Assembly (NCBI RefSeq): GCF_056746865.1 | Contig: NZ_CM163382.1 | Length of the DNA: 64,000 nucleotides | Reading direction: 5' to 3' (one strand) | Shown here: in pieces, positions 40,890-41,702 of the stretch | Layout of the letters: every line of letters begins with the position of its first letter | How positions within the stretch are numbered: the first letter of the stretch is position 1 | The notes under the pieces: model-generated | Told to the model about the DNA's origin: nothing | Database searches by the model: none | What the model saw: the letters and a program-made list of their open reading frames with translations, nothing else | Made by a program: the position numbers and the translations under genes

Positions 40890-40965
40890 TGCAACGCTCT
40901 TATTATTTCTGGAAAACGCCTCGCAAAAACAAAACAACATGCAAAAATCCGCTTTTTTTAAATGA
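40890..40965 (+). repeat. Upstream repeat module, copy 1 (before yiiE)
   Basis: AACTGCAAC...TCTGGAAAACGCCTCGCAAAAA...GCTTT...TTAAA shared with copy 2. Confidence 0.55.
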
Positions 40966-41022
40966 TTTTCCGGCGTAATTTTCGCACATACATTAATGAG
41001 TAATATATGTAAGGTGGTGGTA

Positions 41023-41241
41023 ATGGCGATGAATACGGTTTTTCTTCATTTATCAGAAGAGGCAATTAAACGGCTGAACAAGCTTCGGGGCTGGCGTAAG
41101 GTTTCACGATCTGCAATTTTACGCGAAGCGGTAGAGCAATATCTGGAGCGTCAGCAATTCCCGGTGCGTAAAGCAAAGGGTGGCAGGCAAAAGGGGGAGG
41201 TAGTTGGTGTTGATGATCAGTGTAAGGAGCATAAGGAATGA
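41023..41241 (+). CDS. yiiE: Ribbon-helix-helix (CopG-like) DNA-binding protein YiiE
   Basis: 72 aa from ATG at 41023 with AAGGTGG RBS; AILREAVEQYLERQQ RHH-like segment. Confidence 0.8.
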   Translation: MAMNTVFLHLSEEAIKRLNKLRGWRKVSRSAILREAVEQYLERQQFPVRKAKGGRQKGEVVGVDDQCKEHKE

Positions 41242-41327
41242 CAAAAATTTTTCATTCTTGAATATAAAAAAACAGATGCCCTTATTCTGGTATTAATACA
41301 AGGCTGTTTTACTTGAACTTATAATAA

Positions 41328-41410
41328 CTGCAACTGTTACATCATATCTGGAAAACGCCTCGCAAAAATAAAAAATGATGCGTAAATAAGCTTTCTTTAA
41401 AGATTCGGCA
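41328..41410 (+). repeat. Upstream repeat module, copy 2 (before yiiF)
   Basis: Near-identical core TCTGGAAAACGCCTCGCAAAAA with flanking similarity to copy 1. Confidence 0.55.
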
Positions 41411-41483
41411 AGGGTACTTTTCTCTCCATAGATTCAAAAATGATATTGGCGAGATATTTATGAACTCTCTGGCAGGTATAGAT

Positions 41484-41702
41484 ATGGGCAGAATTTTACT
41501 CAATTTATCGAATGAGTTGTTTAAGCAACTTGATGATCTCGAGGTGCAGCGTAATCTTCCTCGTGCGGAGCTATTACGGGAAGCGGTAGATCAATACCTG
41601 GTAAATCAATCGCAAACAGCAAGAGCCAGTGCTTTTGGCATCTGGCAAGGGAGTGAGGAAGATGGTGTCGAATACCAGCGTAAGCTGCGCGAGGAATGGT
41701 AA
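41484..41702 (+). CDS. yiiF: Ribbon-helix-helix (CopG-like) DNA-binding protein YiiF, paralogue of YiiE
   Basis: 72 aa from ATG at 41484; [14 protein letters not shown] segment parallels YiiE. Confidence 0.8.

Follow-up and report, generated by a model that had tools for sequence, protein, structure and literature searches.

In a 64,000-nucleotide stretch of DNA (contig NZ_CM163382.1 of RefSeq assembly GCF_056746865.1; hereafter the window), two neighbouring genes, yiiE and yiiF, encode small ribbon–helix–helix (RHH) proteins that in K-12 are classed as uncharacterized transcription factors (PMC4797297, PMC9308461). Here we propose, with a probability of roughly three in four, that the pair derives from a now-decayed chromosomal type II VapB–VapC toxin–antitoxin cassette, the antitoxin gene of which was duplicated in tandem. 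The evidence comes from orthologous loci in other Enterobacteriaceae, from the remains of a toxin gene behind yiiF and from the alignment of the two genes, together with their upstream DNA, as one duplicated unit. A short element common to both upstream regions, which a first-pass annotation made from the sequence alone had put forward as an autoregulatory operator, precedes unrelated toxin–antitoxin cassettes as well.

The region is 100% identical to that of Escherichia coli strain 118UI and has the gene order fabY(yiiD), a 617-amino-acid open reading frame (ORF), yiiE, yiiF and fdhE-fdoIHG. Two RHH proteins of 72 residues, encoded head to tail, had been described here, and both genes lie as placed; YiiF is annotated with 80 residues from 41460 (RefSeq, PDB 2K5J) and has 72 when counted from the ATG of the conserved MGRILL motif at 41484. 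YiiE and YiiF are 39% identical (E = 1e-11).

41023–41241 (+ strand): yiiE, toxin-less RHH paralogue of 72 amino acids, matching Pfam RHH_1 at 1.1e-11
41460–41702 (+ strand): yiiF, orphan VapB antitoxin as judged from vapB–vapC synteny and PDB matches

Homologues of YiiF in Citrobacter, Pseudocitrobacter and Salmonella (70–76% identity) are also encoded between fabY and fdhE, there as a lone RHH gene whose end is overlapped by a gene for a 124-amino-acid PIN-domain protein. A scan of one genome per species yielded 54 loci across the Enterobacteriaceae (about 50 species), nearly all with a single vapB-type copy, and the vapB loci examined have the PIN gene downstream. Searched against the PDB, a profile built from YiiF and its relatives matched 2K5J, which is YiiF itself, deposited as uncharacterized, and 7BY2/7BY3, the VapB of Klebsiella pneumoniae (7BY2 at 1e-41), which shares 61% identity with the YiiF of the window. 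The latter entries are the K. pneumoniae VapBC complex of Kang et al. (2020, J Med Chem), as summarized in PMC12652419, which also describes from that work a VapB peptide, GMEAQRQL, derived from GMEYQRQL, the part contacting VapC. The segment GVEYQRKL in the YiiF tail corresponds to GMEYQRQL and falls inside a conserved C-terminal motif; YiiF retains this motif, homologous to the VapC-contacting peptide and thus a candidate toxin-binding tail, and the YiiE tail is degenerate and variable. The antitoxin-like character first suggested for these proteins is borne out: judged by gene order and protein similarity, yiiF is the syntenic orthologue of VapB in the VapB(RHH)–VapC(PIN) cassette of Citrobacter, Salmonella and Klebsiella. 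Across genomes, the fabY–fdhE interval holds ParDE, HigBA (SehAB-like), RelE-like/NadS (SehCD-like) and VapBC in varying combinations, and is a toxin–antitoxin hotspot in Enterobacteriaceae (for the names of the SehCD locus, see PMC3868539, retracted and used for names only, and PMC4366850).

An intact PIN gene overlapping the stop codon of yiiF, present in the orthologous loci, is absent from the window. The 181 nucleotides between yiiF and fdhE hold a vapC pseudogene.

41702–41847 (+ strand): vapC (PIN toxin) pseudogene, with a 5′ fragment at 41702–41791 and a 3′ fragment at 41792–41847

Compared with an intact E. coli vapC, blastn aligns nucleotides 1–91 (82% identity), 305–333 (86%) and 350–380 (100%), and tblastn recovers residues 2–29 (E = 2e-8) and 102–124 (E = 3e-6), in a frame different from that of the ATG. 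The lesions amount to a 213-nucleotide internal deletion, one further deletion and one frameshift; vapC of K-12 and of O157 has the same internal deletion of about 213 nucleotides. An intact vapC is kept in 57 of 5,426 complete E. coli genomes, in the order yiiE–vapB–vapC–fdhE (strain 2016C-3878 is an example of a strain with the intact gene), and the gene is a pseudogene in the window as in most E. coli. In K-12 (positions 4066–4236 of the K-12-like locus L003) and O157 (L002), an insertion of about 150 bp lies inside the vapC pseudogene, right after the yiiF stop (equivalent to about 41725 in the window), which we take to be an element of the repetitive extragenic palindromic or bacterial interspersed mosaic type. 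The window allele is without this insertion, and its vapC 5′ end is thereby preserved.

The origin of yiiE is seen in the alignment of the DNA that carries the two genes. Two units of about 450 bp follow one another, each with an upstream module that includes an identical 22-nucleotide bipartite core.

40795–41241 (+ strand): duplicated unit, copy 1, upstream region plus yiiE, aligned head to tail with 41242–41702
41242–41702 (+ strand): duplicated unit, copy 2, upstream region plus yiiF (vapB)
40884–40983 (+ strand): upstream module, copy 1, 100 nucleotides with gapless 73% identity to copy 2
41323–41422 (+ strand): upstream module, copy 2, the other side of the same 100-nucleotide gapless match
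40908–40929 (+ strand): 22-nucleotide core TCTGGAAAACGCCTCGCAAAAA, yiiE copy
41347–41368 (+ strand): 22-nucleotide core TCTGGAAAACGCCTCGCAAAAA, yiiF copy

The units align end to end, 3′ gene ends included. Both open with CAAAAA..TGAATATAA, and the junction between the copies is the stop codon of yiiE, the TGA of which is aligned to the TGG of the ...EEW* end of yiiF. Local alignment of the non-coding upstream regions scores 81, compared with 19.8 ± 2.4 for 500 dinucleotide shuffles (z = 25). The first-pass annotation had concluded from a similar module of about 80 bp before each gene that gene and upstream region were duplicated in tandem; pairwise alignment confirms both the similarity and the duplication, and shows the extent to be larger, whole units being alignable. 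Tandem duplication of a stretch of about 450 bp that reaches to the vapB stop thus gave a toxin-less yiiE before vapB(yiiF)–vapC. In some strains yiiE coexists with a complete vapB–vapC, from which it follows that yiiE never needed a toxin of its own, and its presence beside an intact cassette is as predicted by a tandem duplication of upstream region and vapB. A third, decayed RHH unit upstream of the first was sought by tblastn and by shuffle-controlled alignment, both of which were negative (z < 0).

We consider it quite unlikely that yiiE and yiiF stem from two separately acquired vapBC-type cassettes, with no duplication in situ and with subsequent loss of the toxin that belonged to yiiE. 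An identity between the proteins as low as 39% would be in keeping with such a history, and independent cassettes do accumulate at the fabY–fdhE hotspot. However, the alignment takes in non-coding DNA far upstream of the core (40795–40880 with 41242–41320) in addition to the 3′ gene ends; unit 1 stops exactly where vapB would and is directly followed by unit 2, leaving no remnant of a toxin gene between them; and among 100,044 species genomes, yiiE-type genes were found in Escherichia alone.

Tandem duplication being the preferred account, the subsequent evolution of the two copies can be compared. Across nine Escherichia loci, the RHH domain of yiiE (codons 1–52) has a nonsynonymous rate (dN) of 0 at a synonymous rate (dS) of 0.138, a sign of strict purifying selection, and its tail (codons 53–72), truncated in one lineage, has a dN/dS of 0.62; this tail, presumably once the toxin-binding region, appears to be decaying. 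The corresponding dN/dS values for yiiF are 0.26 (RHH) and 0.51 (tail), and the gene has a frameshift in one strain and is removed or disrupted by IS1 in others. Both units are matched at a coverage of at least 80% in 4,139 of the 5,426 E. coli genomes, and the exceptions sampled had yiiE alone (for example, Nissle 1917), an IS1-truncated yiiF, or two copies split by inserted genes. From this pattern we infer that YiiE is probably a functional, stand-alone DNA-binding protein and YiiF an orphan antitoxin in slow decay. An anti-addiction rationale for keeping yiiF is disfavoured: among 72,556 plasmid records, only 2 from enterobacteria carry a VapC of the yiiF-linked family above 60% identity, and with this toxin almost absent from enterobacterial plasmids there is little to protect against. 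In the yiiE-only strains (L065 at 3431, L067 at 1970, L071 at 1995 and L063 at 2822), yiiE is followed by a truncated second core, TCTGGAAAACGCCTCGC/GAAATACGA (the stroke marking the junction). There yiiF has been lost through a deletion that starts at the 3′ edge of the core, extends to the 3′ fragment of vapC (AACGC/GGAATACGA) and seems to have arisen by microhomology.

Elements close to the start codons differ between the cassettes, and it is there that specific operators appear to lie, as candidate proximal palindromes.

40986–41010 (+ strand): inverted repeat ACATACATTA-ATGAG-TAATATATGT, candidate YiiE operator, complementary at 9 of 10 arm positions
41441–41462 (+ strand): scrambled vapB proximal element TGATATTGGCGAGATATTTATG, the intact form being TGATATACTGGAGGTATATATG, with more than three mismatches in the window

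The first of these lies directly upstream of yiiE and occurs once in the window. The proximal region of yiiE is almost invariant across ten Escherichia loci, the sole difference, in L066, being within the right arm, and the repeat is the likely operator of YiiE. The proximal block of vapB, TGATATAC-TGGAG-GTATATATG, with the inverted repeat ATATAC/GTATAT, is conserved in about 40 species. Over this range TGATATACTGGAGGTATATATG is nearly invariant, and an E. coli strain that keeps vapC (L066) has it intact; the window reads TGATATTGGCGAGATATTTATG, as do all other alleles examined that are without vapC, with O157-type alleles more diverged. Intact with vapC and scrambled without it, the block behaves as the promoter/operator of the cassette itself, decaying with the toxin, and in the present model TGATATACTGGAGGTATAT is the predicted proximal site of VapB/YiiF. 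Cassettes of the relE-like type have palindromes of their own (GTACGTCATTGACGTAC).

The 22-nucleotide core has a much wider distribution. Its pattern occurs in the window at two places only, both of them in the upstream modules (0.03 expected). As TGGAAAR-N4-CTCGCARAA, it is conserved across the Enterobacteriaceae at a constant spacing from the vapB, yiiE and relE-like operons that it precedes, with variation concentrated in the 4-nucleotide spacer. Before vapB its form is aTTCTGGAAAG-N4-CTCGCAAAAg, 134–135 nucleotides before the MGRILL ATG in about 40 species; the distance to the start codon is about 110–135 nucleotides for yiiE/yiiF. The same core lies 139–141 nucleotides upstream of the unrelated cassette of relE-like and nadS (the latter for a helix–turn–helix (HTH) antitoxin), both in genomes with RHH genes and, at the same spacing, in Salmonella, Enterobacter and Cronobacter loci devoid of them. 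The core predates the duplication, and RHH cassettes are not the only ones to carry it. Beyond these loci, 58 matches in phage contigs are about what a rough chance estimate gives, and 17 matches in metagenome contigs all have unrelated contexts without the TANNNT motif that accompanies the core in the cassettes.

40976–40981 (+ strand): TANNNT (−10-like) motif TAATTT, putative distal promoter element, 66 nucleotides after the yiiE core
41415–41420 (+ strand): TANNNT motif TACTTT, 66 nucleotides after the yiiF core

Counted from the core, TANNNT is found at position +65 or +66 in 45 of 52 vapB rows (four of these rows being spurious pattern matches), 11 of 12 relE-like and all 10 yiiE rows. 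A T-rich block about 17 nucleotides before it is conserved in all three cassette classes, and the homology of the yiiE and yiiF paralogues stops just past TANNNT, at the 3′ end of the module.

From this conserved architecture we tentatively suggest, at somewhat less than even odds, that the core belongs to a distal promoter whose −35 region is weak and in which the upstream 22-bp element would bind a putative host factor. None of the consensus sequences known to us for CpxR, PhoP, MarA/SoxS, IclR/AllR, Ada, SlyA, SdiA, NagC and PurR fits the core, a comparison that serves as a lead only. Two further candidates were rejected: a structured RNA leader (RNAalifold predicts 0 pairs in 26 vapB leaders, and Rfam gives no match at E ≤ 1) and a small ORF spanning the core, where variable sites are contiguous instead of falling at third codon positions and start and stop codons are not conserved.

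A role in recombination is unlikely, although a number of junctions invite it. The core might chiefly be a cassette-boundary site at which relE-nadS, yiiE and vapBC are inserted, lost or swapped: loci that differ in their cassettes begin or cease to be homologous at the core, a chimeric core in E. whittamii joins the esterase intergenic region directly to yiiE, the yiiE-only strains have their truncated second core at the deletion junction, and the core copies of one genome have lineage-specific variants in common. These junctions, the chimeric core and the shared variants leave room for a boundary or exchange role. However, no recombinase is found among the called or annotated genes in flanks of 2.5–6 kb on each side, the arms are not inverted repeats, the yiiE-only junction resembles a microhomology deletion and junctions of this kind would arise from any regulatory site of 22 bp that the loci share; the constant spacing to TANNNT and to the start codons suggests a role in transcription. 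Similarly improbable, in our estimate, is a combination of the two functions, in which core and TANNNT would form a portable 'cassette leader', at once the 5′ boundary of unrelated cassettes (relE-nadS, yiiE and vapBC) at the fabY–fdhE hotspot, their common host-factor input and the point of exchange for their duplication, swapping and deletion. If true, such a leader would be an integron-like arrangement without an integrase.

Very little speaks for the core as an autoregulatory operator bound by YiiE and YiiF, the role first suggested for it. RHH antitoxins usually autoregulate, and no other non-coding stretch is as well conserved between the paralogous units as the core. Nevertheless, the same core precedes relE-like/nadS by about 140 nucleotides in Salmonella, Enterobacter and Cronobacter loci that lack an RHH gene, and it is therefore not the operator of YiiE and YiiF; it has no internal dyad or direct-repeat symmetry; and it lies 113–135 nucleotides before the start codons, whereas the cassette-specific palindromes adjoin them. 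In the RHH β-strand, at alternating positions taken as DNA-facing by analogy with other RHH proteins, all three aligned residues differ between YiiE and YiiF (R/T, L/F, and N or D/H), which makes a shared binding site unlikely.

A sigma-54 (−24/−12) promoter of the form TGG-N10-GCA with a variable spacer can be dismissed: its GG and GC dinucleotides are correctly spaced in all copies and its conservation is bipartite with a variable middle, but by position weight matrix (PWM) the core reaches 1.7–4.4 bits, against at least 7.9 (median 16) for true sites, about 340 window positions score equally, and neither the chromatin immunoprecipitation sequencing (ChIP-seq) list of K-12 nor that of RpoN genomic systematic evolution of ligands by exponential enrichment (gSELEX) has a site at yiiE/yiiF. 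The matrix was derived from 50 ChIP-seq sites and recovered its positive controls, the fdoI site and the glnA site OS37, which we take to be glnAp2. In the window these are TTGGCACAGATTTCGCT (16583–16599, − strand), identical to the glnA site OS37, and CTGGCGCGAATTCTGCA (43276–43292, − strand), identical to the intragenic fdoI site IS47 (Bonocora et al.). Another sequence, CCGGCGTAATTTTCGCA (40970–40986, + strand), 37 nucleotides upstream of the yiiE ATG, scores 10.7 bits, in the range of true sites; the ChIP-seq list of K-12 does not include it, and neither the yiiF copy nor the vapB orthologues conserve it.

Collectively, we propose the following course of events. A duplication of about 450 bp, comprising the upstream region and vapB, placed a toxin-less yiiE ahead of vapB(yiiF)–vapC, and vapC has since become a pseudogene in the window, as in most E. 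coli. YiiE would by now be a DNA-binding protein acting on its own, with an RHH domain held constant by selection, a decaying tail and the proximal repeat as its operator; YiiF would persist as an orphan antitoxin, its proximal promoter/operator element already scrambled. The shared module (core, T-rich block and TANNNT) would act as a distal promoter with a host-factor site, ahead of each autoregulated proximal promoter.

Several points weigh against this scheme. YiiF reaches Pfam RHH_1/RHH_3 only below the gathering cut-off, and the dN/dS figures are drawn from no more than nine Escherichia loci. Being short and rich in A and T, the yiiE inverted repeat is only modestly unlikely by chance. 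Identity of the core copies within a genome may be due partly to gene conversion, not to selection alone. A simple sigma-70 scan of the + strand upstream of yiiE, yiiF and intact vapB found no consensus −35/−10 pair, and the distal-promoter reading accordingly depends on conservation only. Among published start sites, the supplements of Cappable-seq and SMRT-Cappable-seq have no entry for the yiiE/yiiF locus.

If the scheme holds, it gives an evolutionary identity to two K-12 genes, yiiF as an orphan VapB and yiiE as a duplicated antitoxin with a strongly conserved DNA-binding domain. The loci form a natural series (intact vapBC, toxin-less and yiiE-only) for the study of cassette decay and of the recruitment of antitoxins as regulators, and the comparison brings to light a conserved cis-element common to unrelated toxin–antitoxin cassettes of one chromosomal hotspot.

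The surroundings of the duplicated units add further features, among them the island gene upstream of yiiE.

38474–40327 (+ strand): island gene, the 617-amino-acid ORF
41287–41302 (+ strand): degenerate LexA-box-like remnant CTGGTATTAATACAAG, aligning with CTGTATGGATATACAG of Citrobacter, Salmonella and Klebsiella

The island ORF has no significant match in Pfam (best E 0.009, below the gathering score) and none in NCBIfam, and in the identical strain RefSeq annotates it as two pieces, a partial hypothetical protein and a 304-amino-acid 'transposase'. O157 and 118UI-type strains have the island gene and K-12 is without it. Its control by YiiE or YiiF, which the first-pass annotation had thought possible, finds no support: K-12 and many other strains carry yiiE/yiiF without the island gene, and the candidate YiiE palindrome has no second copy near that gene or elsewhere in the window. 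That annotation is thus right on the duplication and the antitoxin ancestry, wrong on the operator and unsupported on the island gene.

The LexA-like remnant was rejected as a LexA (SOS) box, with three mismatches in the CTGT and ACAG arms of CTGT-N8-ACAG. Intact boxes, CTGTATGGATATACAG, are found only in genera that keep a divergent esterase gene, and the E. coli units have degenerate remnants. In L004 (2812–2827), a consensus LexA box, CTGTATGGATATACAG, lies about 20 nucleotides from the start of the divergent alpha/beta-hydrolase (esterase) gene, downstream of a promoter-like pair, TTTTCA-17-TATAAA, and CTGTATGGATATACAG recurs at this position in the majority of vapB and relE loci from other genera, which makes the esterase gene a candidate for SOS regulation. 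A 16-nucleotide inverted repeat, CTGACGTTTTTCGGGT at 40746–40761 and ACCCGGAAAACGTCAG at 41865–41880 (94% complementary), flanks the entire block of yiiE, yiiF and the vapC pseudogene, its right arm being the sequence directly after the fdhE stop codon. In NCBIfam, YiiE and YiiF give weak, sub-threshold matches (E about 0.002–0.003) to NF008671, 'LexA regulated protein' (PRK11675), presumably the E. coli RHH protein YbfE. On SlyA overproduction, yiiE is up 2.5-fold.

Among known systems, FitAB of Neisseria gonorrhoeae and other RHH–PIN modules, in which the tail of the RHH antitoxin wraps the PIN toxin and an inverted repeat in the promoter mediates autoregulation, may be likened to yiiF/vapB in general architecture; we know of no counterpart of the conserved distal core in them. 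In orphan antitoxins and 'anti-addiction' modules, such as chromosomal ccdA-like genes, the antitoxin is kept after loss of the toxin. In this retention yiiF is like the orphan antitoxins; unlike an anti-addiction module, it shows decay and has its matching VapC nearly absent from enterobacterial plasmids. The Salmonella SehCD or RelE-like–NadS cassettes occupy the same fabY–fdhE hotspot and have the same 22-nucleotide core about 140 nucleotides before the first gene, but their proteins are unrelated, with the gene for a RelE-fold toxin first and that for the HTH antitoxin second, and their palindromes are their own. The K. pneumoniae VapBC (7BY2/7BY3; locus L036) is, like the yiiF of the window, syntenic at fabY–fdhE; its VapB and YiiF have in common an RHH N terminus and the predicted toxin-binding motif at the C terminus, G[VM]EYQR[KQ]LR[EK]EW, and its locus has the same upstream core and a proximal TGATATAC..GTATAT element. 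The window departs from that cassette in its pseudogenized PIN gene, its scrambled proximal element and the extra, toxin-less yiiE ahead.

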